Assembly: GCA_963733035.1 (NCBI GenBank)
Contig: CAVTBU010000005.1
Coordinates: 1,472,001 to 1,536,000 of the forward strand
DNA from: Pirellulales bacterium
Lineage (GTDB): Bacteria; Planctomycetota; Planctomycetia; Pirellulales; PALSA-1355
Direction of reading: 5' to 3'
Length of the DNA: 64,000 nucleotides
This document shows positions 20,953 to 37,077 of this stretch, in pieces. The number at the start of each line of letters is the position of its first letter. Position 1 is the first letter of the stretch. Both the position numbers and the translations under genes were made by a program. The notes under the pieces are model-generated. The model was not told the DNA's origin. It did no database searches and saw only the letters and a program-made list of their open reading frames with translations.

Positions 20953-21029
20953 AGCAAATGCGCAAACTGCGAATGGTACCGCTCACACGCCCTCCGTAAA
21001 CAGCGGGGTTTTGTGGGTGCACGGTAGCA

Positions 21030-21120: not shown

Positions 21121-21121
21121 C

Positions 21122-21153
21122 ATTAAGGCGCCCAAATGCACGGAAACCGGACA
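21122..21153 (-). promoter_or_regulatory. ECF-type promoter-like motif, copy 1
   Basis: TGTCCG-16 nt-GCGCCTTAAT. Confidence 0.55.
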
Positions 21154-21302
21154 CCAGGACAGCATTTGCAAGACCGGCACCTCGCAACGTTTGCCACTGT
21201 TTGTCACACCTGAGAGCGGGGGTGATTTTTCACCTAATGTGGCTGGTAACCGTCGGTCGAATTGTACAAAAGGCAGCCGCCACGAAACGGGGCAGTTGCT
21301 CG

Positions 21303-21344
21303 GCCCGCACCTTTTGCTGCCCCGCAGGTGCGGGCGTTTTTTTT
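21303..21344 (+). terminator. Intrinsic terminator lying upstream of a small membrane-protein gene
   Basis: GCCCGCACCT / AGGTGCGGGC 10-bp stem followed by G and T8. Confidence 0.75.
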
Positions 21345-21362
21345 ACTCGACGAACAAGAACC

Positions 21363-21527
21363 ATGTACACAGTAGTCGTCCTGCTTTTCGCTGTGGGTAT
21401 CGCACTGGCGGTACTTCTATCGTATTTTGTTTGGGACACAATGCGTCACACTAGCAAGGTCAGTGACGCCGCCGCCCAGCGTGCCAAGCTACGTGCGGAA
21501 CTCAACCGAAACAAATCGAACTCGTAG
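21363..21527 (+). CDS. Small single-pass membrane protein (54 aa)
   Basis: MYTVVVLLFAVGIALAVLLSYFVW followed by a basic helical tail. Confidence 0.55.
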   Translation: MYTVVVLLFAVGIALAVLLSYFVWDTMRHTSKVSDAAAQRAKLRAELNRNKSNS

Positions 21528-21764
21528 CTGCGCTGCGGTCACATCCGAGTCAGCAGCGTAACGCCTCGCCAAAGGCGCCCGCTTCATTTCTGGCTGAATC
21601 CGAGTGCTCGACGTGTTGTGACAAAATCTGTCAACTTTCTTTTCAGGCGCGTTTGGAGTCTATTAGCACGTTAAGTCACCGTTGGCGAGGACGTGCCGGA
21701 AATTGCTGGAGCGTCCCTGGACCAGACGCCTCGCCCAGCATGAAGTTGGGCGGGGCGTCTTTTT

Positions 21765-21965
21765 TCAACACAACCAAGTTGAGGACGCAGAAAGCATGCG
21801 GTCGTCAGACTGGTTCAGTCTTGCCCACAACCGCTGCATCGCGCGGGTCCACAGCTTGCGTGCGGCGTCATCGCTGCAATCCATCGCTGCGCCGACTTCT
21901 GCAAACGTCAATCGATCCACACTTCGGCGCACGATCTGACAGTAAGTCCTCGGTAGTCCCGCCGA
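21765..21965 (-). pseudogene. ECF sigma factor region-4 fragment, paralog of the 3' end of 23697-24404
   Basis: LTFAEVGAAMDCSDDAARKLWTRAMQRL versus LSFAEVGAAMDRSGDAARKLWTRAMQRL; no region 2 upstream. Confidence 0.8.
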
Positions 21966-22019
21966 GCGGCATGAGGCCGGCACCGTTCAATCTTTGCGTC
22001 GAAGGTATCATTCGCGGCA

Positions 22020-22367
22020 TCACACGCCGACGAATTCGCCACCGCTGATGTACCATCCGTCTCCGCAGGGCTCGCACCAAATAATGTTCAGAGGCACGAT
22101 TGTCGGAGGACCGTCCGGACAGGAAATCCGGCATTCAACTTCACCGGGGACCAGCTTGATGTCATGCAACAGTCCGACACCAAACCGCGAGATTTCTCGA
22201 CTGAATGCCGCGTGCGGCCGGCCGTCGGAAGTTCGCAGCGATACGGATCGAAAGAATGCATGACGCCCGCCACGCAGGCGATGCCTCTTTTCGTTTTTCT
22301 GCGCGTAATTAATAAGGTTCGCAATTGATCCCGAAACTTGGGCTTGCGTCGTTGATTTGTTCGACAT
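22020..22367 (-). CDS. Stand-alone PilZ-like domain protein
   Basis: RBS AAGGAG; Arg-rich RHRLRGGR, REISRFGVGL (D/NxSxxG-like) and IIWC...YISGGEF. Confidence 0.65.
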   Translation of the reverse strand: MSNKSTTQAQVSGSIANLINYAQKNEKRHRLRGGRHAFFRSVSLRTSDGRPHAAFSREISRFGVGLLHDIKLVPGEVECRISCPDGPPTIVPLNIIWCEPCGDGWYISGGEFVGV

Positions 22368-22792
22368 GGGTTATCTCCTTGGAAGGTGGGGGCTCTCTGC
22401 GAGACGTTCCCCTTGAAGGAAGTTCAGGATTGAGTCACCGGCCAATCTGTTAGGCCAACCAATCGGGGTGGGTGAAGGAACCCGTCGCAAGCTTAGGTCA
22501 CTAGAACGCAAGGAGCCTTACATCTGCACGCTACTTGATTGCGACTTTGCGTCAGCTCGAACGGGTTTTGCTGATACTAGCCATCTTTCAAATCCAGAAT
22601 TGTTTCGCACCTAGGACTCAACCTGACATAGCACGGATGCCGATTCCATTTCGTTGGTTAGCCCGACGCAATCGACGCGGCCAATATCGAGGCTGGAGTG
22701 AACTTGTCGCGATGGTTTGCTGGTGAGGCATCCATTCACGTAGGACCTGTCGTGCGACAACAAAGGGTCACCGGCTCACTGTTGATGGGTCC

Positions 22793-22889
22793 ATAAAAAA
22801 GCCCGCGTCACCCTTTCGGCGCGACGCGGGTTTCGCAGCAGCTCCGGGTATTACATGTGGCGCACAGAATCCCCGGAGGGGCGATACTT
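22793..22889 (-). ncRNA. Candidate small RNA 2 (hairpin + GAAA terminator hairpin)
   Basis: CTCCGGG...CCCGGAG extended stem; CCCGCGTCGC-gCC-GAAA-GG-GTGACGCGGG followed by C and T6; promoter-like motif directly upstream. Confidence 0.55.
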
Positions 22890-22920
22890 ATTAAGGCGCG
22901 GAAACCAAGCGAAACGGACA
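22890..22920 (-). promoter_or_regulatory. ECF-type promoter-like motif, copy 2
   Basis: TGTCCG-15 nt-GCGCCTTAAT. Confidence 0.55.
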
Positions 22921-22999
22921 AAAAATCGGATGGCGACTTCCGAACCCGATTCGCCGGGCTATGAATCACAGCTGTTTCCAGAGAGCGGCAGAGACTTGT

Positions 23000-23305
23000 C
23001 TAGCGAAATCGGTCTTCGGAGCCGGCCGTGCGCAGGTGAGGCTCGAGCTTCGCCATCAAATAGCGACCGTCGAGGCAGTCGATGAGGGTGGACATGACTG
23101 CGAGCTTGGTGTCGTTTGTATCGTCCGGTAGCCAGGCGTTAGCGGGTGTGGCCATTATGAATATCTCAGACAACTCGTCGGCAGTGGTCTCGGAACGGAG
23201 AAGCACATAGAGCGTTGAGAGCCAATTCGACTGCCCGAACGTTAACGGCAATCCGAAGACCGCTAAGGTTTCGCGGATGGTCGCTACAAGCCGCTCGCTT
23301 TTCAT
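23000..23305 (-). CDS. Hypothetical protein (101 aa)
   Basis: RBS GGAGGT before ATG 23305 (MKSERLVATIRETL...). Confidence 0.55.
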   Translation of the reverse strand: MKSERLVATIRETLAVFGLPLTFGQSNWLSTLYVLLRSETTADELSEIFIMATPANAWLPDDTNDTKLAVMSTLIDCLDGRYLMAKLEPHLRTAGSEDRFR

Positions 23306-23495
23306 TGCGTCACCTCCCAAATCTCGGCGAAGTCTTCTCCTTGGTACGATCCTCAATGCATGCAACACGACGCACACCGAGAGCGGTGTTGGCAAATCAC
23401 CCTAGTGACACCCCCGCCGGCCAACAGGCGAACGCGGACGTATGGACAGTCCCGATGGAGCCGCTAAGCAGTATCGGGAGCACCCTCAATCTACG

Positions 23496-23523
23496 AGGCG
23501 CTTTTTGAACGACAAACTGGACG
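23496..23523 (-). promoter_or_regulatory. ECF-type promoter-like motif, copy 3
   Basis: CGTCCA-16 nt-GCGCCT, ~170 nt downstream of the sigma gene stop. Confidence 0.5.
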
Positions 23524-23696
23524 CATTACTGATTTGTCATGAGTTCTTGCAGCCAGCGCGGACGAACGGTGTCACTGCATCGAGTACCGCTTGAGCAACG
23601 TGTGACTGTTTGCTGCCGCCAACGAATCTCCGGATGTACTAGAGCCGGCGACGTCGATGGTGGCCGTCTAGACGTAAAAAGCTTGCGGTCGTCGCA

Positions 23697-24404
23697 TTAC
23701 TTCAGGTTCGCACGCAATCGCTGCATTGCGCGGGTCCATAGCTTGCGTGCGGCGTCACCACTGCGATCCATCGCTGCGCCGACTTCTGCAAACGACAGTC
23801 CCTCCAAATTCCTAAGTACAACGGCTTGACGATAACTCTCGGGGAGCCGTCGCAGCGCCCATTGAAGCAGGGCACTATCCTCGGCATCAACGCACCATTG
23901 GCAAGGCGATTTGCACGCAGCAGCACTTGTCGGTTCGAGATCCTTGCCGACAAGGGCATTCAAACTGAGCTCGCGGCAGATGGCACGCTTTGGGGTCAAA
24001 TAACGGCGGCGGGTATCACGCACGCGATTTAAAAGAATTGCTCGCAGCCAGCCAAGTAGCTCTTTTTCCGTGGACCCTTGAAAGCAACTGAATTCTGCCT
24101 GCGCGGCAAGCAAGGTATCTTGGACGACATCCTCCGGGTCCAGTTTTGCGCGGAATCGCTCTGGCAGTAGGCGGTCTGCCACGTGCAGCAGATAACGCTG
24201 GCTGCACTGGAGAAGATAACCCTGAGCTTCCGTACAACCATCGGAGGCCAACCGAATACAGGCATCCTTCTGAATCGAGAGGCTCGGCTCCCCTCCAAAA
24301 ACCGCATTTGGTACTTTTTCGGCGACCGTAATCATGGTAGTGCTGGGGGCAAAAGTCGAAAATGCATCTTCAGGCAGTGTGTAATTCTTACGGCTATTCT
24401 TCAA
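23697..24404 (-). CDS. ECF sigma-70 factor, planctomycete type (no adjacent kinase); start uncertain
   Basis: KLDPEDVVQDT, LLGWLRAILLN and LSFAEVG...AARKLWTRAMQRL motifs. Confidence 0.9.
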   Translation of the reverse strand: MKNSRKNYTLPEDAFSTFAPSTTMITVAEKVPNAVFGGEPSLSIQKDACIRLASDGCTEAQGYLLQCSQRYLLHVADRLLPERFRAKLDPEDVVQDTLLAAQAEFSCFQGSTEKELLGWLRAILLNRVRDTRRRYLTPKRAICRELSLNALVGKDLEPTSAAACKSPCQWCVDAEDSALLQWALRRLPESYRQAVVLRNLEGLSFAEVGAAMDRSGDAARKLWTRAMQRLRANLK

Positions 24405-24543
24405 GTAGCCTGCAGGAGGGTTTGGTTGAACGAGAAATTCATGGAGTGCCTACGCTTGGTGCCGTGCTGACGGGCGTCGCCAAAAGAAGCTGGACGGGAA
24501 CAGAACCGGCCTGGCTCGATGGACCCAAATTGGCTGGCGATTC

Positions 24544-25299
24544 TTATGTCGCGTGCTTTCTTCGTCGGATCACCAGCAGGGCGACGATCCCGAAAGCGGC
24601 CAACGCTACGCTCGCCGGTTCGGGCACGAGATAGCCCGTCCCAGCCACATTGCCCGTGCCCGCGGCATGAAATCCGGTGAGGAACCCGCCAGCTGATGTA
24701 ACGCCCGTCAAGTTCGCACTCGACATGACGATCGTGATCGGCTGGGATTGGTCAAATTCCAAGTTGAACGGCAGGCTTTGCGCGAACAGATCGGTTGCGA
24801 ATCCCGACACGGAGATGGCGATTTGGCTGCCGGTGTAGAAGAACTGCATCGTGTCGATGTTTAACGCCGCTCCCCAACCGGGAATCGTGTTATTGGTCAG
24901 CAGATCGACGCCGAAGGCGCCGCCGTTGCCCCCGCTATAAACGATGCTGCCGCCGGACGCTGGAATGTTGAGCACGTCTTTGATGTAGATGTCCGCAAAG
25001 ACGTTCGTGTTTTGAACTCCGACGAGAGTGCCGTCGAGGTAGAAGTTCATCGAACCTAGCGGATCGGACTGGGCGGGATCACCAATGCCAACGGTGTTGT
25101 GCGTCCCGGCGTCGAAAATATTTGTTCCGTCGTAATCGAGATTGAGTCCGGTGAACTGAATTTCAAGCGTGCCGGCTTTGGCGACGGAAACCGACAGAAG
25201 CACCGCGACGAGCATCGCGAATGCCGAGAAGCGCCGTGCGATACGGCGAGTGGCTCGCAGCAGGGCAAGCTGCGAAGAGGAACCAATCAGCAGACGCAT
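24544..25299 (-). CDS. PEP-CTERM surface protein
   Basis: RBS GAGGAG before ATG 25299; long leader ending VAKA; C-terminal VPEPAS + TM + RRRK. Confidence 0.9.
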   Translation of the reverse strand: MRLLIGSSSQLALLRATRRIARRFSAFAMLVAVLLSVSVAKAGTLEIQFTGLNLDYDGTNIFDAGTHNTVGIGDPAQSDPLGSMNFYLDGTLVGVQNTNVFADIYIKDVLNIPASGGSIVYSGGNGGAFGVDLLTNNTIPGWGAALNIDTMQFFYTGSQIAISVSGFATDLFAQSLPFNLEFDQSQPITIVMSSANLTGVTSAGGFLTGFHAAGTGNVAGTGYLVPEPASVALAAFGIVALLVIRRRKHAT

Positions 25300-25363
25300 G
25301 AAGCTACTCCTCGGTGTCGGCACGGTGCGCGTCGGAAAACCGGACTGCGATGACGCTCGCTTG

Positions 25364-25391
25364 AGACTAGTCACCACCCAGCGAAAGTCAA
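25364..25391 (-). promoter_or_regulatory. Putative sigma70 promoter of PEP-CTERM gene 24544-25299
   Basis: Minus strand TTGACT-16 nt-TAGTCT. Confidence 0.55.
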
Positions 25392-25859
25392 CGAAATCCA
25401 GCCGAAGTTTCGCGAGATTTAACGCAGCCTAAATAAATAGCTGTTTTCGCTTTACGTCAAGGACAGGACGTGTCAGGGTACCGGCGCTGCAGCACGAATC
25501 TGGCGCACCATCACGAACCACTCCTGCGCGGTTCCCACACCGAATAAGTCGCCTGTGGAAACAGGTCAGGCATGTTCTTCGCCGCTGATCAAGGCGCCTC
25601 GCGGCGGTCGGGGTGACCGATTTTTGTCGATCAGTTTCAGCGGCGAGATAGTCCCAGTTTAGGTTCCACCAGACCAAGCAAGGGCCATCCAGGGCTTTGC
25701 AAAGCAGTTGCCCGCAAGATTTCTTGTTACCTGAAAGCCGTTTAGTCAGTATGCCGCCATTGGCGGCCTATAGGGAGTTAGAAGGGGTGTTTCGGGAGTA
25801 CGGCTTATCCGCACACTATCCGCTCTTTGATGATGCGCCACATCCTCAGGTACGTAAAT

Positions 25860-26609
25860 ATGAAATCGAAGATTCTGTTGCTGGCTGCAAGTTGTGTGGC
25901 ATGGGCGTGCTTCGGTCCTGCTGCTCATGCGGCAATTTCGATTGTATCTGCCGTAGGGGGGCAACCGATCAGCGGGGCGAACTACGTGACGTTCAATGAC
26001 CTTTCTGCAGGCGGCACCGGCGGCTTCGCTGCCAATACGACAGCCTCGGGCGGCATTACGGTATCTTTTACTCCCGACGCAAAAGTGGTCAGCGGCGCGG
26101 CATCTGGTTTGTATGCCCCTCCTTTTCTCTCGAACAACAATGGCTTGAACTTCGGTGGTCAGGGCAATGGCGCGGACGCAACCAATTATTTAACGAGCGG
26201 TAGCGATGGTGGCAGTTACCCGGCTGCCAAAGCTGTTCTGACGTTCTCCAGCAAGCAGCAGTATTTCGGGCTGTTGTGGGGATCGGTCGATAAATACAAC
26301 ACCTTGCAGTTCTTTGATAATGCGACGTTAGTCGGAACAATCGACGGTAGCCAGGTCGATGCCAATGCGACCGGCGACCAAGGTACATCGGGAACCTTTT
26401 ATGTGAATATCAGCTCGACGCTGGGTTTCGATAAGGTTGTGGCCACGAGTTCCCAGTACGCATTTGAGTTTGATAATGTGGCCTATTCTCAATACTCGGT
26501 CGATCCTCAGGGTGTGCTCTCCGTTCCCGAGCCGGCCAGCATTATCGTCTGGTCGCTGCTCGCCTTAATGTTAGGTGGCGCCAACTGGTGGCGACGACGA
26601 AGTGGCTAG
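25860..26609 (+). CDS. PEP-CTERM protein, Npun_F0296-like family
   Basis: Signal peptide; YFGLLWGSVDKYNTLQF and AFEFDNVA motifs; VPEPASIIVWSLL...WWRRR. Confidence 0.88.
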   Translation: MKSKILLLAASCVAWACFGPAAHAAISIVSAVGGQPISGANYVTFNDLSAGGTGGFAANTTASGGITVSFTPDAKVVSGAASGLYAPPFLSNNNGLNFGGQGNGADATNYLTSGSDGGSYPAAKAVLTFSSKQQYFGLLWGSVDKYNTLQFFDNATLVGTIDGSQVDANATGDQGTSGTFYVNISSTLGFDKVVATSSQYAFEFDNVAYSQYSVDPQGVLSVPEPASIIVWSLLALMLGGANWWRRRSG

Positions 26610-26825
26610 GTTTTGCTTAACCTGCCAAGCAGCGGGGCCTACATGAATCCTGCGCTGCCATTTTTGGGTCCCCACTTTCTTCTTTCGCGGTGGCTGCCTC
26701 GTCGTGTCACCCACGCGATACGTCAGTGGTCATTGACTGGCAGCTTGGAGGAGCAGGCCATGCGCGGGTCATTGATCGCATGAGCCACGGTTCGTGAATA
26801 CTCGACCCGGCTCTCAAGTGGTTTC

Positions 26826-27197
26826 ATGGTGTATGACCTGTTGAGAAGCCAACCAGCCAACCATCGCGAGCCGATTTCGTCGGCGATGATCGACCGTTGG
26901 CATTTCCGAAAACTGTTGTTTGGTTTAACGATCTATGAGGTCACCGCGGTCACTCTGAAAAACGGTCAGCCTGTCGAGATCGTTGGCGACTACGAAGACA
27001 GCCGTATTCAATTGGTCTACTCACGAACTTCTCCCGGAGAACTCAGCGAGATCCATTTCTCGAATAATCCGTCTGCCACGGGAACCGTCATTCGGTGTCC
27101 CGAAGAGATAGCCGCTGTCAGAACGGCACTACGACCCTTGCTCATGCAGTTTTTTGAGAGTCTGGCAGAAGACGTTGGCCTTCCGCCCTCAAACTGA
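26826..27197 (+). CDS. Hypothetical protein
   Basis: 123-aa ORF with protein-like composition filling the gap between convergent genes. Confidence 0.5.
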   Translation: MVYDLLRSQPANHREPISSAMIDRWHFRKLLFGLTIYEVTAVTLKNGQPVEIVGDYEDSRIQLVYSRTSPGELSEIHFSNNPSATGTVIRCPEEIAAVRTALRPLLMQFFESLAEDVGLPPSN

Positions 27198-27266
27198 TCT
27201 AGCCTTGCCTGTTCCGACCTCGTTGAAACATCAATCCGACAGGCATCAGTTCAATGAAGACGCGGA

Positions 27267-30200
27267 TCACCTTAGTTCGTCCGCCGGAATCTCAACCAGC
27301 TCCCCTGCAGTGGAACTGACCATGACGCAGTCGAAGTTCTGCGCGAACGTTGGAAAACCGCTTAGGTGACCTTCCTGTCGAGCGCGGTTGTGAACGTTTC
27401 GAAACAACTGCTCCAGGCTTTCCGGTTGGTCGAGATCCTCGAAGTTCCAACTTATTTGCGGCATGTCGGGGACTTTAAGCAGCAATGCTTGATAGGCGAG
27501 TCCCGCCGATCCTCCATCCGCGACACGCGCTCCAAAGATGGCCCCGCCATACCCCCTCACACGAGCCCATCGGCATATCCGACCGGCGACGTCTGCAAAC
27601 AGGTGTTGTTCAAGGTCGTAGTCCGATCTGGGAGTGCCGATCGGGGATGCAAGTAAAGTGCTTGGGATTTCCACGAGCTTGGCGGAGGCCGCTTTGAACA
27701 CGACCGCCTGATAGTGCCGCTGACTATCCCGCTGAACTCGTACGAACGTCGGGTAACCACCAGCGTATCCGTGCACGGTCGCCCAATCATTGACGGCTCG
27801 AATCAATTGGCACGTCGTGGGCGATCCCTGTCTGTTTCGGCTTGAAGCGTCGGAGAGCTGGTCTTGTTGGCGTGCGTGGTCGGGAAGAAGCGGAACGGTT
27901 ATCGCCCCGTTGCGCACCGTCAAGGCGGACGCGGTGGCAACCAACTGATCAACTTGCGGATCGATCGCCGCATCGCAATTCTCGTCTCGATAAATGGCGA
28001 TCTCGTTTACGCGAGCGTTGACCTCCGCGGCCGACAAAGGACGCCCCTCCAAGTCTTCAAAGCGGAGGGTAACGCTATCGACTAGACGATCTCCGTGTCG
28101 GCGGCCGGCCGTGAACGACCGCATGATCGGCAGCACGGAGCTAGACCGCCACAGTTGCTGCCAACCGGTTTTTGTCTTTTGTTCGAGTTCCACGTCGAAC
28201 CGAAGCCCTTCGTTGGCGCGCCAGATCACGGCGTTCTTGTCGCGTGCGGCAATGATCGCATCCGGTCGCCCGTCGCCATTGACGTCAAATGCTTCAACGC
28301 ACTCGCATCCAGGTGCGTGCCCATCCACTGGGTGCACGGTTTGATTGAATCGTCCTCGGCCGTCGTTTACAAAACACGTCACTCGGTCGCCCTCGTGGTC
28401 GCAAAGCAACACGTCCAGATCACCGTCCACGTCAAGGTCAACGACATCGACATCGGTTGCCCTGACAAGCTTGGTCGCCACGGTATTCGCCAGCGTGAAG
28501 GAGCCCTTGCCGTCGTTGGCAAACCAGACTGCGCTTTCGTCACCCGCATACAGCACATCGGGATCGGTGTCGCCATCCAAATCGGCCGCGACGACTGCCA
28601 TCACGCGACTCGCGTGTGTCGTTACAACGCGCGGTACGGAAAAGCGACCATGCCCTTGGTTGGCGTACCAGGCCACGGTATCGTCGCCGGACGACCCGGA
28701 GAGAATGTCGATATCGCCGTCGGCATCGAGATCCGCCGTTGTCAAGCAAATGTCCCCACCAGTGAACCGGCCGATTGATTGTGGATCGCCGAGTCGGCCG
28801 GCGCCCAGATTCTCAAGCACGACTATCGAAGCGTTCGCCACTGCCCCACATACCAAATCAAGGTCGCCGTCGCCGTCCAGATCGGCCGCGGCCATTCCGT
28901 CCACGTCCCGTAGTTTTGAAAGCGTCCGTCGCTCCTGCGGCGCTCCACTGCTGTCAAACGTTAGCCACCAAGCTTGGCTGTCGGCCGAACAAACAACACC
29001 CGGCAATCCGGACCCGTTAAGGTCCGCCGCGAGGATATTTGAGCATCTGTCCACAGTCGCGGCCCGGTCATGAAATTCCGTACCACTGCCGTCGTTGGTC
29101 AGCATATGTAGCCGGCCCTCGCTACGACTCATCGCCGCGACATCTAGATCGCCATCACCGTCAAAGTCAGCGACCGCCAGCCGTCGCGGTTCCCGAGTTC
29201 CTGAGGCGATCGTGCGGCTTGCTCCAAATGCCGGAATCGGGTGTAGGATTGCCGAGGATGGTAACGGCGACGAGACAACCGAACCTGTTGGCCCATCCTG
29301 GTCGAATGCAGAAATCGGGGCAGGTGGGACGCAGCGAACGCGGATAGGATCGCAGGTGCCAATTGCGTCAGCGGCCATTTCAAACTTGATCAAAAGGTCG
29401 GACTGGCGCTGCAGCGGAATTCTTTCTTCAGCCGCCAGAAGAGGTGCCCACGCGGTATCGGCGATGTCTTTCAGCACGGTCGAGCGCGAGGCGTCACGCG
29501 GCAGGGACCACCGCCAGATTCGTCCCATGCCTTGCGAATCCTGGCCAAGGGCCAGGAGTTGGTCGTCATTGCCGGTAAAAGTGAAGTCGATGATCTCGCA
29601 GCAATCCTCGCATTCGAGTTGCAACAGCGGTTGGCCATTTTGAACGTCAAAAAGCGTGATCAGTACAGAATTCGATTGAGAAAACTGTGGGGCAGTAGCC
29701 AGGATCCGTCCGCGCGACGAAAACTTTAGCGTATAAAGTTCGGTCTGCTGCGGAACAAGCGACCGTACAACCTTCCCTGTCGCGACGTCCCAAAGAGTCG
29801 TTTCGCCTAACTTGCAACAAGCAATTGACTTTCCGTCAGATGAAAACGTCGCGTCGAAAGCATCACCCAGCGAGTGCTTTAATTCTCCCGTGCGAACGTC
29901 GTGCAACCGCACCTGATCCGTTCGAATTGCCAGCCGTTGTCCGTCCGGAGAAAAGGTCATGCGCAAAGGGGCACTTCCGACTTTCACCAGCCTCGTCACT
30001 CTTCCCACTTGCCGGTCGATAATTGCGACGTGTCCCTCGTCGATGCGGAGTGCCACGTGCTGGCTGTCGCTCGACCAAACAAGTTCACCCTGGCATGCCC
30101 ACGGGTTTGCTTGCCGAAGCAGCACTTTGCCCGTCGCGTAATTCCAGATGGCCAACTCTTGCTTGCTCGCAACGGCCGCGTGCATGCCGTCGGGGGCCAA

Positions 30201-32804
30201 ACCAACCTCTTCAACTGAATCGATCGGCGCCCGTACGATGCCGATCAGGCGACCGGCTGTCAGGTCCCAGGTACGCACGAAACCATCTTTTGAAAACGTC
30301 GTCGCAGAGTTGCCCTGGGAATTGACCGTCATGGCGCGAAACAAGGCCGCCACTCCAAGAGGTAATTGCGAGCCGGCCGGTCGTCTTGCAGAATCCCAGA
30401 GTCTTACGACACGATCGGCCCCGGCGGTAGCCAGCGTGCGCCCGTCCGGCGACCAGGCGACCGACCACACTCTCCCAATATGTCCCAAAAGCCTCTCTGG
30501 GGGGCCCTGTCGGCCAAGTGACCAGAGCTTGACGATGCCAGCCTTGTCGCAAGACACCAGTCGGTTATCGAAGGGAGAAAACGCGAGGCATTGAATCTTC
30601 TCAAGATGATCGTGACGGAACCTGTGCTTGCCAGACAAACCTTTGACATCCCAGTCCCTAACTTCAATCCAGTCGCTCTTTCCTGCATAGGCGAGCCAGG
30701 GAAAGTCATGCGAAAAGGCTACAGCCAGCACATGGAAACCCGGACTCTTTGCTCCGGGCAGTTCCTGCCAATCGCTCACGCGCCAGCAGTGCACGGCGCC
30801 GGCGTCATCGCCCGATACGAGCAACGACCCATCGGGCGAGAAACTTACGGCTTGCACGAAGTCGGCAGGGCTCTCCAGCACCCGCTCCGGCAACCGCCGT
30901 GCGACATTCCAGACGCGAACGGTCGAATCCCAGCTTCCGCTGGCCAATAGCTTGCCATCGGGCGAGAAGGCTATCGCAGGTATGCCAGCACTGTGACCTT
31001 CAAGAACCCCGACCTGCGCGCCGGTGTCCGTATTCCAGAGACGAATCGTGCAATCTTCACTGGAACTGGCTAGCAGCCGGCCATCGGGCGAAAAGGCGAC
31101 TCGCATGACCTCGTCGGTGTGCCCTCGCAGCACGTGCAAGGCATTTCCCGAAACGGCATTCCAGATTCGGGCGGTGCCATCCTTGCTGGCCGTGGCCAAC
31201 CGTCGACCATCGGCCGAATATACGACGCAAAACACCTCGTCGTCGTGACCCTCAAGCGACAGCGCCTCCTGATGGCTTAATCCTTGGAGATAGTGCCAGG
31301 CAAAGCTGCGGAGATCCTCTTGTCCATTCTTGGGTATGTGCCGCTGGAGGTACTCGAGCATCTGCGGTACGTTGTCCGCCTGGTAAGCGCCTTGGGCCAA
31401 CCCCACGTCGGCTGCATACAGTAAACGTCGGCTTGCTTCGGCCTCACGTTGGGCGACCTCGCGTGCCCGATCAGCGCGCGTAACCTCACTGCTGAGCCGT
31501 GCGCTGTAGGCAACGACAACTCCGAACAGCGTGGCGGCGGCGACCACGACAACGGTCCATAGCGCCGCGATCGCTGGGCGGCGACGAGCCCATTTCCATG
31601 CGCGCTCCGCTGCAACCAGCGGTCGTGCCTCGGTGACCTGGCCGGCTAAGAACCGCCCCAAATCGTCTGACAAATCCTGCGCGGTGACATAGCGCGCGTC
31701 GCGCTCTTTTGCCAAACATTTCAGGCAAATCGCCTCCAAATCGCGAGGAATGTCGTGACGGATGCGACGTGGTGCCACAGGATCATCAAACAACACATGT
31801 CGCAGTGCTTCGATGTCAGACGCGCTCTCAAAAACACGCCTACCGGTGAGAATCTCGTACAACATCGCCCCCAAGGCATACACGTCGGCGCGGGCATCGA
31901 CGTCGCGGACTCGGCCTTGTGCCTGTTCAGGCGCCATGTATGCCGGCGTGCCGACGAGCGCGCCGCTGCGAGTTTCGTCTCCCTCTCGCTCCAACAACTT
32001 GGCCATGCCGAAGTCCGTCAGCTTGGGAAATGCCGCGTCCCCGTCAACGCTTCCCGCAATGGGCTTGTTTTCATCGGTCGTTGTCGCGAGCTGCGTCGGC
32101 TGCGATTCCGCCTGCGGCCTGGTCAGCATCACGTTGCTGGGTTTGATGTCGCGATGGAGGACGCCGCGTCCGTGGGCATGCTGCACGGCTTCGGCAAGTT
32201 GTTTGACCACGCGCGCCGCCGTATCGATTGGCACCGGCTCCTTCCGCGACTTGAGCCACTCCGCCAGCGTCGGTCCTGGACAGAATTCAGCGGCGATGTA
32301 GCAAATCGAAGCCTCTTCGCCAGCTTCGTAAACGCTGACAAGATGCGGGTGGCTCAGTCTTGCCGCGGCTTCCGCCTCGCGGAGAAAACGGCGGCGCAAA
32401 TCGTCACTCACGAGCGACTCAAGGCGAGGAACTTTCAGGGCCACCTGGCGGTGCAGTTTCGGGTCGTAGGCCAGGTACACGACGCCCAGTCCGCCGTGCC
32501 CCAATTCACTTTGAATATGAAACCGCCCCAGCGTCGTGCCTGCTTTGCCGGTCGGCGTGGCGACGGCCGCGTGAGTCGGTCGGGGCGTATCCGTAGTCGC
32601 CAGATCGGGCGACCAGCCGCGCCGTACGCGATGTAGAAGCTCGAGGCAATGCCGGTCGGCTTCCCACTTGGCCAGTATTTCCTCGTCCTCGGCGATCGAG
32701 GATGCATCGACATACCCGGAAGCGGTGCCGGCGGCAAGCTGTTCGTCGATTTGGACCAGGAGCTCCGTCAGCAGGTCTTCGCGATCTCGATCGTCGACAA
32801 CCAT
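27267..32804 (-). CDS. Hanks-type Ser/Thr kinase with TM segment, WD40 repeats, FG-GAP/VCBS repeats and an unassigned C-terminal region
   Basis: GHGGLG, VALK, HRDIKPSN, DFG and YMAPE motifs; hydrophobic helix IAALWTVVVVAAATLFGVVVAY; GH...WD/WN repeats; DLDGDGDLD repeats. Confidence 0.95.
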   Translation of the reverse strand: MVVDDRDREDLLTELLVQIDEQLAAGTASGYVDASSIAEDEEILAKWEADRHCLELLHRVRRGWSPDLATTDTPRPTHAAVATPTGKAGTTLGRFHIQSELGHGGLGVVYLAYDPKLHRQVALKVPRLESLVSDDLRRRFLREAEAAARLSHPHLVSVYEAGEEASICYIAAEFCPGPTLAEWLKSRKEPVPIDTAARVVKQLAEAVQHAHGRGVLHRDIKPSNVMLTRPQAESQPTQLATTTDENKPIAGSVDGDAAFPKLTDFGMAKLLEREGDETRSGALVGTPAYMAPEQAQGRVRDVDARADVYALGAMLYEILTGRRVFESASDIEALRHVLFDDPVAPRRIRHDIPRDLEAICLKCLAKERDARYVTAQDLSDDLGRFLAGQVTEARPLVAAERAWKWARRRPAIAALWTVVVVAAATLFGVVVAYSARLSSEVTRADRAREVAQREAEASRRLLYAADVGLAQGAYQADNVPQMLEYLQRHIPKNGQEDLRSFAWHYLQGLSHQEALSLEGHDDEVFCVVYSADGRRLATASKDGTARIWNAVSGNALHVLRGHTDEVMRVAFSPDGRLLASSSEDCTIRLWNTDTGAQVGVLEGHSAGIPAIAFSPDGKLLASGSWDSTVRVWNVARRLPERVLESPADFVQAVSFSPDGSLLVSGDDAGAVHCWRVSDWQELPGAKSPGFHVLAVAFSHDFPWLAYAGKSDWIEVRDWDVKGLSGKHRFRHDHLEKIQCLAFSPFDNRLVSCDKAGIVKLWSLGRQGPPERLLGHIGRVWSVAWSPDGRTLATAGADRVVRLWDSARRPAGSQLPLGVAALFRAMTVNSQGNSATTFSKDGFVRTWDLTAGRLIGIVRAPIDSVEEVGLAPDGMHAAVASKQELAIWNYATGKVLLRQANPWACQGELVWSSDSQHVALRIDEGHVAIIDRQVGRVTRLVKVGSAPLRMTFSPDGQRLAIRTDQVRLHDVRTGELKHSLGDAFDATFSSDGKSIACCKLGETTLWDVATGKVVRSLVPQQTELYTLKFSSRGRILATAPQFSQSNSVLITLFDVQNGQPLLQLECEDCCEIIDFTFTGNDDQLLALGQDSQGMGRIWRWSLPRDASRSTVLKDIADTAWAPLLAAEERIPLQRQSDLLIKFEMAADAIGTCDPIRVRCVPPAPISAFDQDGPTGSVVSSPLPSSAILHPIPAFGASRTIASGTREPRRLAVADFDGDGDLDVAAMSRSEGRLHMLTNDGSGTEFHDRAATVDRCSNILAADLNGSGLPGVVCSADSQAWWLTFDSSGAPQERRTLSKLRDVDGMAAADLDGDGDLDLVCGAVANASIVVLENLGAGRLGDPQSIGRFTGGDICLTTADLDADGDIDILSGSSGDDTVAWYANQGHGRFSVPRVVTTHASRVMAVVAADLDGDTDPDVLYAGDESAVWFANDGKGSFTLANTVATKLVRATDVDVVDLDVDGDLDVLLCDHEGDRVTCFVNDGRGRFNQTVHPVDGHAPGCECVEAFDVNGDGRPDAIIAARDKNAVIWRANEGLRFDVELEQKTKTGWQQLWRSSSVLPIMRSFTAGRRHGDRLVDSVTLRFEDLEGRPLSAAEVNARVNEIAIYRDENCDAAIDPQVDQLVATASALTVRNGAITVPLLPDHARQQDQLSDASSRNRQGSPTTCQLIRAVNDWATVHGYAGGYPTFVRVQRDSQRHYQAVVFKAASAKLVEIPSTLLASPIGTPRSDYDLEQHLFADVAGRICRWARVRGYGGAIFGARVADGGSAGLAYQALLLKVPDMPQISWNFEDLDQPESLEQLFRNVHNRARQEGHLSGFPTFAQNFDCVMVSSTAGELVEIPADELR

Positions 32805-32813
32805 ATCGTGGAG

Positions 32814-33449
32814 TCACTCGATGTCAGTCAACAATTCTTGCAACTTGCGGACCGCACGGGCCCACGTCTTACGAGCGGCATCGGCGGAACAATTTCGGCG
32901 CGCGCCGATTTCGGCGAATGCCGCACCTTGCCACGTGCGTTCCATCAGCACCGATCGCCATGGTTCTTCCAGCCTTTCGAGCACCGCGCGGACGCGCCTT
33001 TGCTCGTCTCGCGCAAGGAACGACGTGCCCGGCGTTAACGCGTCATCTTTCAGTCTTTCAAGCGCTCCCTCAAGCAGCGCCAAGGGTTGTTCGCGGCCAA
33101 CGTCACGTCGTTTAACCTGACTATATCGCCGGACGCTATTGGCTACTCGATGCCGCAGAATACCGACCAGCCAAGCGTAGAATTCCTGCGGAGTGTTGCC
33201 GCGAAATGCCTCAAAACCACGATGCGCTTCGACGAACGTATCCTGCACCAAGTCCGAAGCGCCCACCTTTGAACGTAACTTGTCATCCAACGCCCGATTG
33301 GCGACTAGCAGCAAGTACTTGCGGTTTTCCTCCAGCGCCCGTCCCAGGGCGGACTTCGATCCGTCCCGTGCTTCCCGTACCAATCTTTCAATCGCTTGCT
33401 CGGCGGAGGGCACTCCGTCCTGTCGCGCAGGCGAAAACGGTGCATCCAT
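32814..33449 (-). CDS. ECF sigma-70 factor cotranscribed with the Ser/Thr kinase
   Basis: KVGASDLVQDT, FYAWLVGIL and FAEIG...AARKTWARAVRKL motifs; stop codon 9 nt before the kinase ATG. Confidence 0.93.
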   Translation of the reverse strand: MDAPFSPARQDGVPSAEQAIERLVREARDGSKSALGRALEENRKYLLLVANRALDDKLRSKVGASDLVQDTFVEAHRGFEAFRGNTPQEFYAWLVGILRHRVANSVRRYSQVKRRDVGREQPLALLEGALERLKDDALTPGTSFLARDEQRRVRAVLERLEEPWRSVLMERTWQGAAFAEIGARRNCSADAARKTWARAVRKLQELLTDIE

Positions 33450-33787
33450 TAGTCTGCGGCCTCTATATCGATAGGAACAAATCGAGTGAAAACCGGACGG
33501 GCCGAGAAGCTATAGCGGCGTGGAATTGTTCGGATGGCGGACGACTGAGCGTGGTTTGATCAGCCGACTGCCGACGCGGATAGGCACAAAAAACAGCGTG
33601 GGTGTACGATACCCCCACGGTTTGCCAACGTCAAGAATTTGTCAGGGTTCCCCTAGGATTCCAGCCAACTGTGGAACTTCGGCCGAAGCAGTCGCCGTGC
33701 CGATTCCTGTCAGCCGCCGAAGAGAGCACAAAAGTGAGACGTTCGTCGAGGATTGATGGCCACGCAGACTTCCTGGACGCATCGAAA

Positions 33788-33976
33788 TCAAGTCCGACCC
33801 CGTTCCAACTGGTCGGCACGCAATTCTCGCTCGAGCTCAAGCACATAAATTCGCGTTACGACACCGGCGTCATCGTGCCGGGAACGCAGTTTTGCCAGTT
33901 CGGATTCGACTGCTCGAAGCCGCTCGGCAATCTCCCGACGGAGTTCCGAGGATAGTCGCATGATGGGCGTTCGCAT
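33788..33976 (-). CDS. Possible small coiled-coil protein
   Basis: MRTPIMRLSSELRREIAERLRAVESELAKLR..., amphipathic pattern, weak RBS. Confidence 0.35.
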   Translation of the reverse strand: MRTPIMRLSSELRREIAERLRAVESELAKLRSRHDDAGVVTRIYVLELERELRADQLERGRT

Positions 33977-33988
33977 GAACATCAACCC

Positions 33989-34031
33989 AAAAACAACCCC
34001 GCAGCGCGGGGCAGTGCGTGCAACTGCGGGG
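33989..34031 (-). terminator. Putative terminator of PEP-CTERM gene 34170-34976
   Basis: Minus strand CCCCGCAG...CTGCGGGG followed by TTGTTTTT. Confidence 0.5.
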
Positions 34032-34169
34032 CGGCGAGCGAGTCGCTCACCATCCTCACATCGTCCAGTTGCCGTCTGGACTTTAAAAATGCGCGCACGA
34101 AATAAGCCGAAGCAGAACTGGATCTGCCCCGGCTCATGCAATCGTGTGGTTGACGACTCCTCGGCGGCG

Positions 34170-34976
34170 CTATGCCGAACGCCGACCTCGTCGCCACCAA
34201 CATGCGCCGCTTACTGTCACCCCCAGCAGCGACCAAACAAGCAAACTGGCCGGCTCAGGCACGGCTTCGAGATTGACGTTGGCAATGTCCCCATTGTTTA
34301 GAGTGATCGTAAGTCCATCGACGAGGCCCGTAAAACCAGTGGACCATCCGCTGCCGGTTTGCAGACTAAACAGATTTACGACTTCATTGCTGTAATCAAC
34401 GTTCTGACTGCCGCTCGGCCAGTTCACCGGACCCGCTTGCAAGTTCGCTAGCGTCGGGTCGGTGTAAGTTCCATAGATACCGCCGTCCCGATTGACGTCG
34501 TAGAAGCGAAGGGGATTTGTTGAATCGTTAGTTGACCATTGGTGCCAAGTACCCGGTGTCACAGCAGCCGTGCCAGTCAAGTAAGGTTCCGCATTCAGGC
34601 GCGAGTGGTACCAACTCGCCGAATCGCCCGTGCCGGTCGCCGCGGTGTATAGGTACAACGCCCAATCCGGGTCGGCCGCTGTGGTGCCTTTGTTCGTCCA
34701 ATAGCTAATCGACGCGATGTCGGCAATCGTCACCGCACTGCTAAAAAGTGAACTCGCTTGAATGTACAGTTCTCCTTTGGTGTCCGAGGACTGTTGCCAG
34801 GAGCTTCCCGAGAAGCCAGGTGCTGAGGTGCTGCCGTTGCCCGCCACGTTTGATGCACCTGAATAACTGGGATAGAGGGTCACGTTGGTAATCGCGGCCC
34901 TGGACTCCGATGGATTGGTTAGGACTGCCAACAAGACAGCTAAGCACAAAATCAGATGCGAAAAATGACGATTCAT
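34170..34976 (-). CDS. PEP-CTERM surface protein
   Basis: Signal peptide; C-terminal VPEPASLLVWSLL...WWRRGRR. Confidence 0.9.
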   Translation of the reverse strand: MNRHFSHLILCLAVLLAVLTNPSESRAAITNVTLYPSYSGASNVAGNGSTSAPGFSGSSWQQSSDTKGELYIQASSLFSSAVTIADIASISYWTNKGTTAADPDWALYLYTAATGTGDSASWYHSRLNAEPYLTGTAAVTPGTWHQWSTNDSTNPLRFYDVNRDGGIYGTYTDPTLANLQAGPVNWPSGSQNVDYSNEVVNLFSLQTGSGWSTGFTGLVDGLTITLNNGDIANVNLEAVPEPASLLVWSLLGVTVSGACWWRRGRRSA

Positions 34977-35331
34977 CCGGTCCCCCCCCAGTGGTCGAGT
35001 CTCATAAATGCCGCGATTGCGTCTGGCTTCACATCACCGGACGGACAAGTTCTGTCATGTCAACCGATGTCAACATGTAATAGTCCGGAAGTCCGCCATT
35101 CCTGACACAAACTCTAAAATATATATTTCTAGAATTGAAGGGATTCCGAAGTCAAAGACCGAACTTCGAGGGGGAGGCCAAAATATGGCCATTTGAGACA
35201 AATACTTCGCACTGACCGGCATGCCCGCTCGATCCGGGAGTTTCCATTCGGATCTCGAACTGCCGATTCGGCTACGCCGCCGGAGTTGCGGACGCAGCTA
35301 CTTCGATGCCGAGGCGACTCACTTCCCGGAG

Positions 35332-36063
35332 TCAGATGCGTACTTTGTTGGAGAGGGGGCTCGGCTCGCACAGTTTTTGACGCAATTTGGTCGCTCCGCG
35401 ACTACAAAGCTTTCGTGCCGCCTCACAGGAGCATTCCAGTTGATTCCCAATTTCTCGGAAAGAACGCTGCTCTTGGTGTCGCAAAAGGAACGCGTCCCGC
35501 ATCCGCACCGGCAGCTGACCAACACATTCGTCTAATCGAACGGTTTCTTCAACTAACAACACTTGCTGCGCGGGGTTCGCTTGCTTTGCCCACAACTCGG
35601 GCACTCCGTCCTCGCAGAGTTCCAGCGACAACTCGCGGGAGACATCGCGCTTCCTGGCCCGTTGATAGTACCGGTTGATGTCGGCGGCCTGGTGCAACAG
35701 GATCTGCCGCAACCAACCCAATAATTCGTCGCGCCGCTGACCACGGAAATCGGCAAAGCAACAGTGCGCCTGTAACGCTGTTTCCTGGACCAGATCCTCG
35801 GGATCGAGCTTCGTCCGCAAAGAATTCGCCATGACTCGGTTGGCAATCGATAGCAAATAGGCGGAACTACTTTCGATCAGCCTTCCTAATGCTTTCGTGG
35901 AACCTTGCCGGGCCTCGTCGATCCAGCGTGCAAACCGTTCTTCGCAACTTTCTTGCTTTAGTGCCTCAGCGTTCGGGTCGCTCGGGCGCTGTCCGAGTTC
36001 CACATTTGGTGCCTTGGCACGCGCCACGGCGGACGAGCGATGCCGTTTGACCTGCACGTACAT
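35332..36063 (-). CDS. ECF sigma-70 factor, planctomycete type (no adjacent kinase)
   Basis: KLDPEDLVQET, LLGWLRQIL and SFREIG...AARKLCSRG motifs. Confidence 0.9.
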   Translation of the reverse strand: MYVQVKRHRSSAVARAKAPNVELGQRPSDPNAEALKQESCEERFARWIDEARQGSTKALGRLIESSSAYLLSIANRVMANSLRTKLDPEDLVQETALQAHCCFADFRGQRRDELLGWLRQILLHQAADINRYYQRARKRDVSRELSLELCEDGVPELWAKQANPAQQVLLVEETVRLDECVGQLPVRMRDAFLLRHQEQRSFREIGNQLECSCEAARKLCSRGATKLRQKLCEPSPLSNKVRI

Positions 36064-36301
36064 TGGCGCAACCCTATCAGCCGCACTGCACGGGGGAGTT
36101 CAGGTGCCAACCAGCGTGTCGCAGGTACACTGACTTCAAAAATTCAACACACGAGCTAGTCAGATCAAGTGAGCGGCACGACTTGTGAGCCTTATTGGCG
36201 GTCGCCTCGCAACAACCTGACGGTAGCACTTGTGCGCGAATCGAAATCAGATGAGAAAGTGACGAATTAACAGAAAGCTTGATCGACACCGTTGGGGGTC
36301 G

Positions 36302-36329
36302 ATCTTATGTCCAACAGCCGGGGTGTCAA
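36302..36329 (-). promoter_or_regulatory. Putative sigma70 promoter upstream of ECF sigma 35332-36063
   Basis: Minus strand TTGACA-16 nt-TAAGAT. Confidence 0.55.
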
Positions 36330-36836
36330 GGAACGCGAGCGTGACAAAGTCGTTATATAACCCTTGCGCGCCAAGTGAGTTAGCACTGAACATTGACGCA
36401 ATACGTCAATGCTTGGGCCGTTATGTCAGGTCGACAAGTTTCCAGCTGTCGGCGCCAAAGACTAAGCTTGGCGAGCCAACCGAGGCAGCTTCTACTGCAT
36501 TCGTAGTGATCGTTTACGCACATGATGACAGGTCGCGACACGGTTCGGCGCGGTTGCGGCCGTGACGGGAGTTGTGAACACTTTTTTTGCAAAGTTCTTC
36601 AGCGGGACGTAACGCGTGGCCTCGCGGAAAACCCCGAAGTCGGTAACGCCTGATTTGCAGACCTCCCCAACACGCCTCCGTCAAGCCAAACTCTTACGAA
36701 TCGCGGACTGTACACGCGCAGAGTAGACGGACGCCGGTGACGAATCCGCCCGCCCGAGCTGCCATAAGTTTCGCTTATCTAAATGCTTACCGAACAGGAA
36801 AATGATTGGCGGATTCGAGATTTCCTGCATTTGGTT

Positions 36837-36868
36837 CGTCCGGTATGCCCCCTCTTTTGCGCCTTTAG
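36837..36868 (+). promoter_or_regulatory. ECF-type promoter-like motif, copy 4
   Basis: CGTCCG-16 nt-GCGCCTTTAG, upstream of an AGGAG-led ORF at 36951 and the HTH gene. Confidence 0.55.
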
Positions 36869-37077
36869 GAATAGACCGCTTGCGTTCGCAGCGCAATAGG
36901 CGATTAGTCGTTCCGGCAACGGTTGAAGTTCTCCAAGCAGGAGATAGCTAATGCACTTCAGCGGCCGCCAGGTGAGCATCCGATGCTCGAAGGTAGCAGC
37001 CGAAGCAGGCCGCTGTGGGCCCAGTCTGAGCAGCCTTGGTTCGGACTGTCGAAGAAATCACAACTCCCAGACTCCCA

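Follow-up and report, generated by a model that had tools for sequence, protein, structure and literature searches.

The four promoter-like sites of a sigma factor island

The DNA studied here is a stretch of 64,000 nucleotides from a Pirellulales bacterium, hereafter called the window (G000:C5:1472001-1536000, from an assembly of 6.65 Mb in 10 contigs with about 60% G+C). The source genome is labeled G000, two congeners are labeled G002 and G003, and the other G numbers refer to genomes of the same family; positions without a contig label are those of the window. Genes were called crudely, as long open reading frames (ORFs) with a high G+C content at third codon positions, and all divisions into intergenic and coding DNA are approximate. 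Between 12 and 38 kb, the window contains an island with four genes for sigma factors of the extracytoplasmic function (ECF) type, one kinase, three PEP-CTERM proteins, a sulfatase, a PilZ-like ORF and a helix-turn-helix (HTH) regulator of the HTH_11 type, as classified with Pfam. The island also contains four copies of a two-box motif, YGTCCR-N15/16-GCGCCT, which are the main subject of this analysis. On balance, we favor the view that these four sites are promoters for an ECF-type alternative sigma factor of a planctomycete family that is encoded four times in the island, and that two of them drive terminated transcripts of about 90 nt.

All four copies listed in the original prediction were recovered by exact sequence matching at the positions and on the strands claimed, and all were intergenic. 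Site 1 (21126..21153, minus strand) consists of TGTCCG at 21153-21148 as the -35 box, a 16-nt spacer, and GCGCCT at 21131-21126 as the -10 box, followed by TTAAT. Site 2 (22894..22920, minus strand) reads TGTCCG-15-GCGCCT and is likewise followed by TTAAT, while site 3 (23496..23523, minus strand) reads CGTCCA-16-GCGCCT and site 4 (36837..36864, plus strand) reads CGTCCG-16-GCGCCT, followed by TTAGGAATAG. The spacers start with GTTT, TTTC, GTTT, and GTAT, and the tails read TTAAT (twice), CGTAG, and TTAG, also as described earlier. It was noted that anchoring the copies on GTTT instead of GTCCG accounts for the spacer of 15 versus 16 nt, giving C(C/-)GTTT-N12-GCGCCT. All four copies have the geometry of the sigma-70 family, with boxes about 16 to 17 nt apart. 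The two boxes are mutually unlike and non-palindromic, and their orientation relative to the downstream terminators or genes is constant.

Within the window, the motif is more frequent than expected by chance, with 4 copies compared to 0.63 expected from shuffled sequences. The GTCC-N17-GCGCCT form occurred 3 times, with a mean of 0.33 in dinucleotide shuffles and none of 100 shuffles reaching 3, and the GTCC-N16-GCGCCT form occurred once, with a shuffle mean of 0.30. A relaxed search for GTCCR-N15-17-GNNCCT yielded five matches, which were the four sites and the promoter of the sigma gene that is linked to the kinase, all located in non-coding DNA of the island. No similarity outside the two boxes was identified in an alignment of the 300 nt around each of the four copies, and they are therefore not repeats of a single element.

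Two of the four sites appear to head short terminated transcripts rather than genes, a point absent from the original prediction. Behind site 1 lies candidate small RNA 1 of about 85 to 90 nt (21031..21120, minus strand), which is predicted to fold into a first hairpin followed by a GC-rich hairpin and a U-run (T-run at 21038-21034, 92 to 96 nt past the start of the -10 box). The fold has an energy of -42 kcal/mol and a z score of -2.63, and the terminator hairpin alone an energy of -22.5 kcal/mol. Unit 1 is convergent with the plus strand ORF at 20353-20952, no gene lies behind it, and no relatives of it were found among 40 related genomes. Behind site 2 lies a second unit of about 90 nt, which may be a small RNA or a terminated leader (22794..22886, minus strand), with a first hairpin, a conserved unpaired stretch GCUGCUGCGAAA, and a terminator (T-run at 22800-22795); its fold has a z score of -3.12 and its coding content, as read from the sequence, is limited to ATG-TAA. 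Both units contain a strong hairpin and a U-run 92 to 98 nt after the -10 box, and both have the features of small RNAs, namely a promoter-like site of their own, an intrinsic terminator, and no ORF inside. No matches to Rfam covariance models were obtained at E values up to 1 in window positions 19000-39000.

The other two sites are followed by longer leaders and ORFs. Site 3 is located 174 nt past the stop codon of the sigma gene at 23697-24404. Downstream of it come a leader of about 190 nt, with no terminator within 150 nt, and then a small ORF of 101 amino acids from an ATG at 23305 (23000..23305, minus strand; a longer ORF with a TTG start begins at 23395). This ORF matched no Pfam or NCBIfam family and had no usable match in the Atlas. 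Site 4 is divergent from the sigma gene at 35332-36063 and precedes, with a leader of about 210 nt, the gene for an HTH_11/DeoR-like regulator (37036..37626, plus strand; likely start ATG 37078; Pfam HTH_11, E value 1.6e-5). As stated earlier, each copy is soon followed by a hairpin, which starts 10 to 18 nt past GCGCCT in all four cases; only two of the four fold better than shuffled sequences, these being the terminator-ended units (z scores of -2.6 and -3.1, compared to -0.55 and -1.5 for the other two).

Three further sites were identified elsewhere in the source genome. Upstream of an AidB-like gene, the site at C5:479957 is followed by a terminated RNA of about 140 nt. Another RNA of about 140 nt, likewise terminated, follows the site at C8:441620 and has a 3' module paralogous to unit 2 (at G000:C8:441709). 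The stretch AGGAATAG after the -10 box is common to this site and site 4, and the RNA ends 60 nt before two PEP-CTERM genes. The third site, of the GCGCCT form at C5:1570344 on the minus strand, is located 634 nt upstream of an operon for a sigma-like protein, an exosortase, a Wzc-like kinase, and a TPR protein. A terminator with a folding energy of -19 or lower was located 60 to 150 nt downstream on the same strand in four of the six strong sites, compared to 37 of 1,500 random intergenic positions (binomial P 5e-6, a value that is overstated since two of the units are paralogues).

The motif appears distinct from the housekeeping promoter. The pattern TTGAC-N16-19-TAnnnT was found within 100 nt upstream of 6 of the 52 tRNA genes outside a large tRNA array and in none of the reversed controls, and the GTCC pattern was found upstream of none of the 52. 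A consensus scan identified no sigma-70-like site next to the four copies; the same scan identified TTGACA-16-TAAGAT at 36329-36302, upstream of the sigma gene at 35332-36063.

Conservation of the boxes in related genomes

Unit 2 with its site was conserved in both congeners, at 75% to 76% nucleotide identity over 128 nt, with the two boxes kept as CGTCCG and ACGCCTTA and the DNA upstream of the -35 box diverged. Two of the 32 predicted pairs in the stem were compensatory, in a comparison of three sequences only. Exact matches to the 3' module of small RNA 2, CTGCTGCGAANCCCGCG, were found only in G000 (two copies), G002, and G003, and matches with one mismatch occurred at control level and without the context. 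Genome G001 contained no unit 2. G002 and G003 also share two more orthologous pairs of sites, both with ACGCCTTA; a terminated RNA of about 75 nt follows one pair, and about 800 nt downstream of the other lies the exosortase-linked sigma-like gene. In all seven GCGCCT sites of G000 (six sites used as seeds for a matrix, plus C5:1570344), the -10 box begins with G, and in all three pairs of sites in G002 and G003 it begins with A. Such a concerted change at every site fits with a single trans-acting reader. It was also noted that a homolog of the HTH regulator, 56.6% identical, is located 2 kb from the orthologue of small RNA 2 in G003 and G002.

The gene for the kinase-linked sigma (32814..33449, minus strand) has a promoter-like site of its own. 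The original prediction had listed a half-match before this gene, at 33498 on the minus strand, and this proved to be a full variant promoter, GTCC-N16-GTTCCTA, with GTCC at 33498-33495 and GTTCCTA at 33478-33472 (33472..33498, minus strand), located 49 nt before the ATG at 33449 and conserved in other genomes. The two other half-matches fared less well. The one before a PEP-CTERM gene at 25345 on the minus strand is weak, with GTGCCGA as the best -10-like heptamer and a spacing that is off by two, and GATCCG-16-GCGCGG at 14344 contains two core mismatches and has no supporting evidence.

To place this promoter in the family, we used the kinase-linked sigma as a query and collected 30 loci from 33 family genomes. 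The pattern GTCCR-N15/16-G..C[CT]T[AT] was located 29 to 55 nt before the start codon in 8 of the 30 loci, compared to 1 of 30 in a reversed control, and the -35 box and spacing of this footprint, CGTCCGGTTT-N-GNNCCTW, are the same as in the window sites. In a MAFFT alignment of the ten closest loci, all with at least 52% identity and the window gene included, the upstream DNA was conserved only at CGTCCG(G)TTT and CGTTCCTA; G002 and G003 contained GCTGCCTA and G014 contained GCGCCGATTT. Orthologues of the kinase-linked sigma in other genera kept both boxes, with diverged flanks. Furthermore, in a second clade around another kinase-linked sigma (C8:364456), the -35 box CGTCCG[GCT]TT was found in 5 of 11 loci, including the C8 gene itself, and the -10 boxes in four of the five were GCGGCTA, GACGCTC, GTGCCTT, and GCTCTTA. 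The GCGCCT form precedes no sigma gene of the family, the nearest case being GCGGCT before C8:364456.

A three-part pattern that includes the start region, GTCCGSTT-N12/13-GNNCCTW-N3-8-AGRGG, yielded 9 matches in the 33 family genomes, compared to 2 in the reversed control. Of the eight matches outside G000, seven, distributed over six genomes and four genera, read (N)CGCACCT(A/T)...TAGGGG, and a further GCACCTT site was found in a fifth genus. We write this wider class as GTCCGGTTT-N-CGCACCTA-N-TAGGGG, and the window motif appears to be a local version of it. Terminators were located 98 to 187 nt downstream in five of the eight matches outside G000. By eye, the RNAs in G020 and G024 were homologous to each other, and a T-rich stretch was often seen ahead of the -35 box in the site outputs. 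Also by eye, G023 (L172) and G044 (L173) were seen to contain GCACCT-type promoters before mutually similar small ORFs (...RIVA.L..IG.Q.N...), which could encode a small protein that is a conserved target of this class. Taken as a whole, these sites probably represent a genuine class of ECF-type promoters that belongs to the planctomycete sigma family described below.

The two short units of the window could also be 5' leaders with conditional terminators (attenuators or riboswitches) rather than trans-acting small RNAs, a possibility that we take seriously but hold to be the less likely of the two. The unit at C8:441620 that is paralogous to unit 2 stops shortly before two PEP-CTERM genes, as described above, and in G014 a GCACCTA promoter and its terminated RNA are located about 60 nt before a homolog, 42% identical, of the PilZ-like gene of the window. 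Unit 2 itself is located 430 nt upstream of the PilZ-like ORF at 22020-22367, on the same strand. However, only one of the seven other PilZ-homolog loci contained such a promoter within 800 nt, and no clear ORF on the same strand follows the unit 2 orthologue in the ORF list of G003. Unit 1 has no gene behind it and points toward the end of a gene on the opposite strand, and no Rfam family was matched.

Candidate readers and alternative explanations

All four sigma proteins of the island exceeded the NCBIfam cut-off for ECF sigma factors, and the best NCBIfam hit of each was to the Planctomycetaceae-specific model TIGR02984 (Sig-70_plancto1, hereafter plancto1), with scores below the cut-off in each case. 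The source genome encodes about 13 paralogues of this family, these four among them. The kinase-linked sigma (Pfam Sigma70_r2 and r4) scored 147.9 bits against TIGR02984 (cut-off 183.75) and 64.2 bits against TIGR02937, sigma70-ECF (cut-off 42.9). It is followed immediately by the gene for a serine/threonine kinase of 1,845 amino acids that is fused to WD40 and FG-GAP repeats (27267..32804, minus strand; Pfam Pkinase with an E value of 2.6e-44, WD40, and FG-GAP_3). The other three sigma genes have no kinase gene of their own. They are located at 23697..24404 and 35332..36063 on the minus strand and at 13633..14334 on the plus strand, as identified with Pfam profiles (also with NCBIfam profiles for the first two) and the region 2.2 pattern. 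The kinase found within 3 kb of the sigma gene at 35332-36063 belongs to the neighboring sigma. No copy of the motif was found upstream of the gene at 13633-14334, where it was looked for.

The kinase-linked and the kinase-less proteins differ in region 2.2. Five kinase-linked paralogues contain (A/P)SD(L/V)VQ in this region, as GASD, APSD, or GPSD, with GASD in the window protein, whereas the three kinase-less proteins of the window contain (A/P)ED, as GAED in 13633-14334 and DPED in the other two. The SD count refers to the five of five paralogues with a kinase within 3 kb that were caught by the pattern, and three kinase-linked proteins and one kinase-less protein (C5:66119) were not caught. 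The serine in place of an acidic residue may serve as a phosphorylation switch for the adjacent WD40 kinase, by analogy with EcfP of group ECF43. EcfP is reported to be without the acidic DAED motif and to be activated via phosphorylation of a threonine at that place, and serine or threonine residues occur in or near the DAED motif in other kinase-linked groups (PMC8999054). EcfP and PknT of Vibrio parahaemolyticus resemble the window pair in that a sigma factor is encoded beside a serine/threonine kinase and has a hydroxyl residue at the place of DAED. However, only one position is changed here (S for E), compared to the whole motif (STTA) in EcfP, the two belong to different ECF groups and phyla, and phosphorylation of the window protein is putative.

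The sites had originally been considered as targets of the local sigma paralogues. One part of this claim held, in that the sites are promoter-like for the sigma family of the island, as suggested by the footprints before the kinase-linked orthologues and in the second clade. The other part, which named the island's own four proteins as the readers, was not carried by these footprints, although such an attribution is plausible. The leading candidate is the kinase-linked sigma at 32814-33449, because its own conserved promoter shares both the -35 box and the CCT core with the sites. This protein also has orthologues with 58% identity in G002 and G003 and none above 44% in G001, where unit 2 is missing as well. 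An equally possible reader is a kinase-less paralogue that prefers GCG in the -10 box, and kinase-less sigma genes adjoin sites 3 and 4. The protein encoded at C8:364456, with its GCGGCT promoter, was considered as a shared reader and rejected, with no orthologue in G002 and G003 at an E value of 1e-40.

On this basis, a promoter would consist of an often T-rich upstream stretch, a -35 box of the form (C/T)GTCCGGTTT, a spacer of about 12 nt, a -10 box of the form G-N-N-C-C-T-(A/T), which is GCGCCT in G000, and a start region 6 to 9 nt past the -10 box that often reads (A/T)TAG(A/G)GG. Transcription from these sites, which we infer, would yield two stand-alone transcripts of about 90 nt with intrinsic terminators in the window, as candidate small RNAs or terminated leaders, along with transcripts for the small ORF at 23000-23305 and the HTH_11 regulator. 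The kinase-linked sigma would read the sites, and the adjacent WD40 kinase would turn it on by phosphorylating the serine in region 2.2. More broadly, and tentatively, a kinase-gated ECF sigma of this kind that is switched on via serine phosphorylation could read the T-tract-GTCCGGTTT-N12-GNNCCTW-TAGGGG class as a whole, mainly at small RNAs and a few PEP-CTERM or exosortase genes, with the -10 box having drifted along with its reader (GCACCT in at least four genera, GCGCCT in G000, and ACGCCT in the two congeners). We regard this extended scheme as possible rather than likely.

A number of results weigh against the interpretation of the sites as promoters of the island's sigma family. Genome-wide, the strict motif had 15 matches in 6.65 Mb, compared to about 17 by base-composition arithmetic, so that no enrichment is seen across the genome. 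The signal therefore lies in local clustering and context, not in frequency; the 10-base core, GTCC-N16/17-GCGCCT, had 37 matches in the genome, 11 of which were intergenic. The pattern GTCCR-N15/16-GNNCCTW had 65 matches in G000 (16 intergenic) and 169 in the control (21 intergenic). A matrix from the six seed sites gave scores of 30 to 35 bits for the seeds, with site 1, itself a seed, at the top, and 21.3 bits for the next best site, and at 18 bits or more there were five non-seed sites in the genome, compared to eight in reversed controls. The set of sites is thus tiny and was partly chosen post hoc, and there is no hidden large regulon. Two-box patterns did no better across genomes, with 19 matches to GTCCR-N15/16-RCGCCTTA in the 33 genomes compared to 107 in the reversed control, and 28 matches to GTCCGST-N13/14-GNNCCTW in five genomes compared to 59. 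ECF promoters commonly contain AAC in the -35 box and CGT in the -10 box, and neither signature is found in the boxes GTCCGGTTT and GCGCCT (only site 3 has CGT just past the -10 box). The sequencing runs that contained window positions 20500-25500 were three soil-metagenome DNA runs from one study, with no RNA run among them.

Other results in this direction bear on the identity of the reader. The -10 box of the kinase-linked sigma gene itself is GTTCCTA and not GCGCCT, and GCACCT-type sites exist in genomes where the best match to this protein is only 38% to 42% identical. The three kinase-less proteins have no clear orthologue in G002 and G003 (best identities 40% to 48%), which keep the motif, and a 20-kb stretch of G003 with two of the sites contains no sigma of the island's family. 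It should also be considered that the upstream footprints could mark the sigma genes as targets of another sigma rather than as autoregulated genes.

The sites could instead be read by the divergent sigma-like protein encoded at the head of the exosortase operon 60 kb away (G000:C5:1569051-1569710), which would make them part of a surface program of PEP-CTERM proteins and exosortase. The operon, located outside the window (G000:C5:1565757-1569710, minus strand), encodes the sigma-like protein of 219 amino acids, an exosortase of 340 amino acids, a Wzc-like tyrosine autokinase of 750 amino acids, and a TPR protein of 1,481 amino acids. We consider this reader improbable, although several observations fit with it. 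The GCGCCT site at C5:1570344 lies upstream of the operon, and in G003 and G002 the 56%-identical orthologue has a ACGCCTTA site about 800 nt ahead of it; among the 33 family genomes and in one scan of a species collection, these two were the only ones with an orthologue. The small-RNA-2 unit and the GCGCCT or ACGCCT form of the -10 box in site context were found in the same genomes only; in G003, the exosortase operon, the small-RNA-2 orthologue, and the HTH homolog are located within 8 kb. Two other sites in G000 precede PEP-CTERM genes. However, the same -35 box is conserved before plancto1-type sigma genes in many genera that do not encode the sigma-like protein, and the GCACCT class also occurs in such genera. 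The protein matched Sigma70_r2 only weakly (E value 0.005, below the cut-off), by inspection its C-terminal region does not resemble that of plancto1-type proteins, and a block GTCACCCA(C/G)GGGAACGGAGT located about 100 nt before its gene in G000 and G003 looks more like its own promoter.

A wider role in PEP-CTERM expression was also considered. A -35 half-site was found near 16 of 77 PEP-CTERM genes, compared to 505 of 5,230 called genes (P about 0.002), but on inspection only two to three of the cases resembled full promoters. The full pattern was found for 2 of the 77 PEP-CTERM genes, compared to 44 of the 5,230 genes, and a general PEP-CTERM regulon was rejected. As a separate observation, a GTCCGCTT-N12-GCTCCTAT site outside the window, at G000:C5:49770-51037 on the plus strand, is located about 90 nt upstream of the gene for a PEP-CTERM protein of 383 amino acids; it adjoins ORFs that resemble insertion sequences and is located 5 to 6 kb from the sigma-kinase pair at C5:56360.

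An origin of the four copies by chance, or as residues of local duplications, with no common function, would agree with the genome-wide count, with a consensus that was set post hoc, with the relationship between unit 2 and the C8 unit, and with signs of duplication and decay in the island, in particular a remnant of sigma region 4. We nevertheless find this quite unlikely, given that the four copies are alike in their boxes only, that terminators are associated with the sites, that the boxes are kept in the congeners, that the family genomes are enriched in the three-part form, and that all five GTCCR-N15-17-GNNCCT matches of the window fall in non-coding DNA of the island. Over 49 amino acids, the remnant itself (21813-21956, minus strand) shares 67% identity with the C-terminal end of the sigma encoded at 23697-24404; with no region 2 ahead of it, it suggests that island sequences have been duplicated locally and have decayed.

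Least probable of all, and by our estimate very unlikely, is that the motif is not a promoter but an operator for a transcription factor such as the HTH_11 protein at 37036-37626. One site does precede this gene, and its homolog neighbors the small-RNA-2 orthologue in G002 and G003. However, the boxes are unlike, non-palindromic, and in one orientation to downstream terminators and genes, no matching site was found upstream of the HTH homolog in G003 or G002, the same boxes occur at a fixed 29 to 55 nt before sigma start codons in many genomes, and the short RNAs showed no promoter-like site besides these.

If the sites are promoters of the plancto1 sigma family, they resemble autoregulated ECF promoters in several respects. 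In the ECF classification, group-specific bipartite motifs are predicted upstream of the gene for the sigma itself, as in Casas-Pastor et al. 2021 (PMC7826278). The window motif likewise consists of two short boxes 16 to 17 nt apart, is found in its GTTCCTA variant before the gene of the kinase-linked sigma and some of its orthologues, and is reused at a few loci, in the manner of a small regulon. The boxes are GTCCGGTTT and GNNCCTW instead of the AAC/CGT type of many ECF groups, and the GCGCCT copies of the window precede no sigma gene.

Planctomycetes contain dozens of ECF sigma factors, many of which are paired with serine/threonine kinases. Groups ECF62, ECF59, ECF61, and ECF217 are kinase-associated groups from this phylum in which, as here, no anti-sigma factor is seen and a serine/threonine kinase is encoded directly downstream. 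ECF62 contains planctomycete sigmas with a kinase fused to WD40 repeats at position +1, and promoter predictions are given as 'not conserved' for ECF61, ECF62, and ECF217 (PMC7826278). The subgroups ECF62s1 and ECF62s2 are similar by description to the window sigma at 32814-33449 in having a downstream kinase fused to WD40 repeats. The difference is the conserved two-box motif found here within one Pirellulales family, in a comparison with the groups that was made by their descriptions. No target promoter for kinase-linked planctomycete ECF groups was described in the literature searched, and no description of the motif or of sigma-dependent small RNAs in Planctomycetes was found in that literature, with subscription journals outside its coverage.

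In enterobacteria, the ECF promoters of sigma-E directly head the terminator-ended small RNAs MicA, RybB, and MicL of the envelope regulon. The candidate units of the window are similar in that an ECF-type promoter would head a short terminated non-coding RNA, but there is no sequence relation and some of the units here may be leaders.

The analysis provides a concrete consensus and a short list of targets (short RNAs, an HTH regulator, and a few PEP-CTERM or exosortase loci), which makes the question testable by ordinary means, and it flags candidate small RNAs in a phylum with few known. If the kinase-gated scheme is true, the kinase-linked planctomycete ECF groups would gain their first target consensus and regulon, and the phylum its first sigma-defined small RNAs; should the promoter class itself prove wrong, the island would still be an unremarkable cluster in which sigma paralogues lie together with PEP-CTERM genes.

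Other features of the island and the genome

The 3' end of the PilZ-like ORF (22026-22079, minus strand) contained about 50 nt with 79% to 88% DNA identity in eight genomes of other genera and in G002, a level of conservation far above that in the rest of the region. Near unit 1, a small ORF of about 55 amino acids on the plus strand (21366-21533; frame and ends provisional) showed a hydrophobic N-terminal stretch by eye, and was preceded by a plus strand terminator at 21321-21342.

Two very large ORFs on the minus strand, located at 37642-42678 and 58695-63971 and encoding 1,678 and 1,758 amino acids, contained identical or near-identical segments every 921 bp. A 70-nt stretch within them was repeated at 38803, 39724, and 40645 in the former and at 59736, 60657, and 61578 in the latter. 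Finally, the tRNA array excluded from the promoter control, which is located outside the window at G000:C6:241000-269000, contained 44 tRNA genes in about 27 kb according to ARAGORN and is of a type known from some mobile elements.

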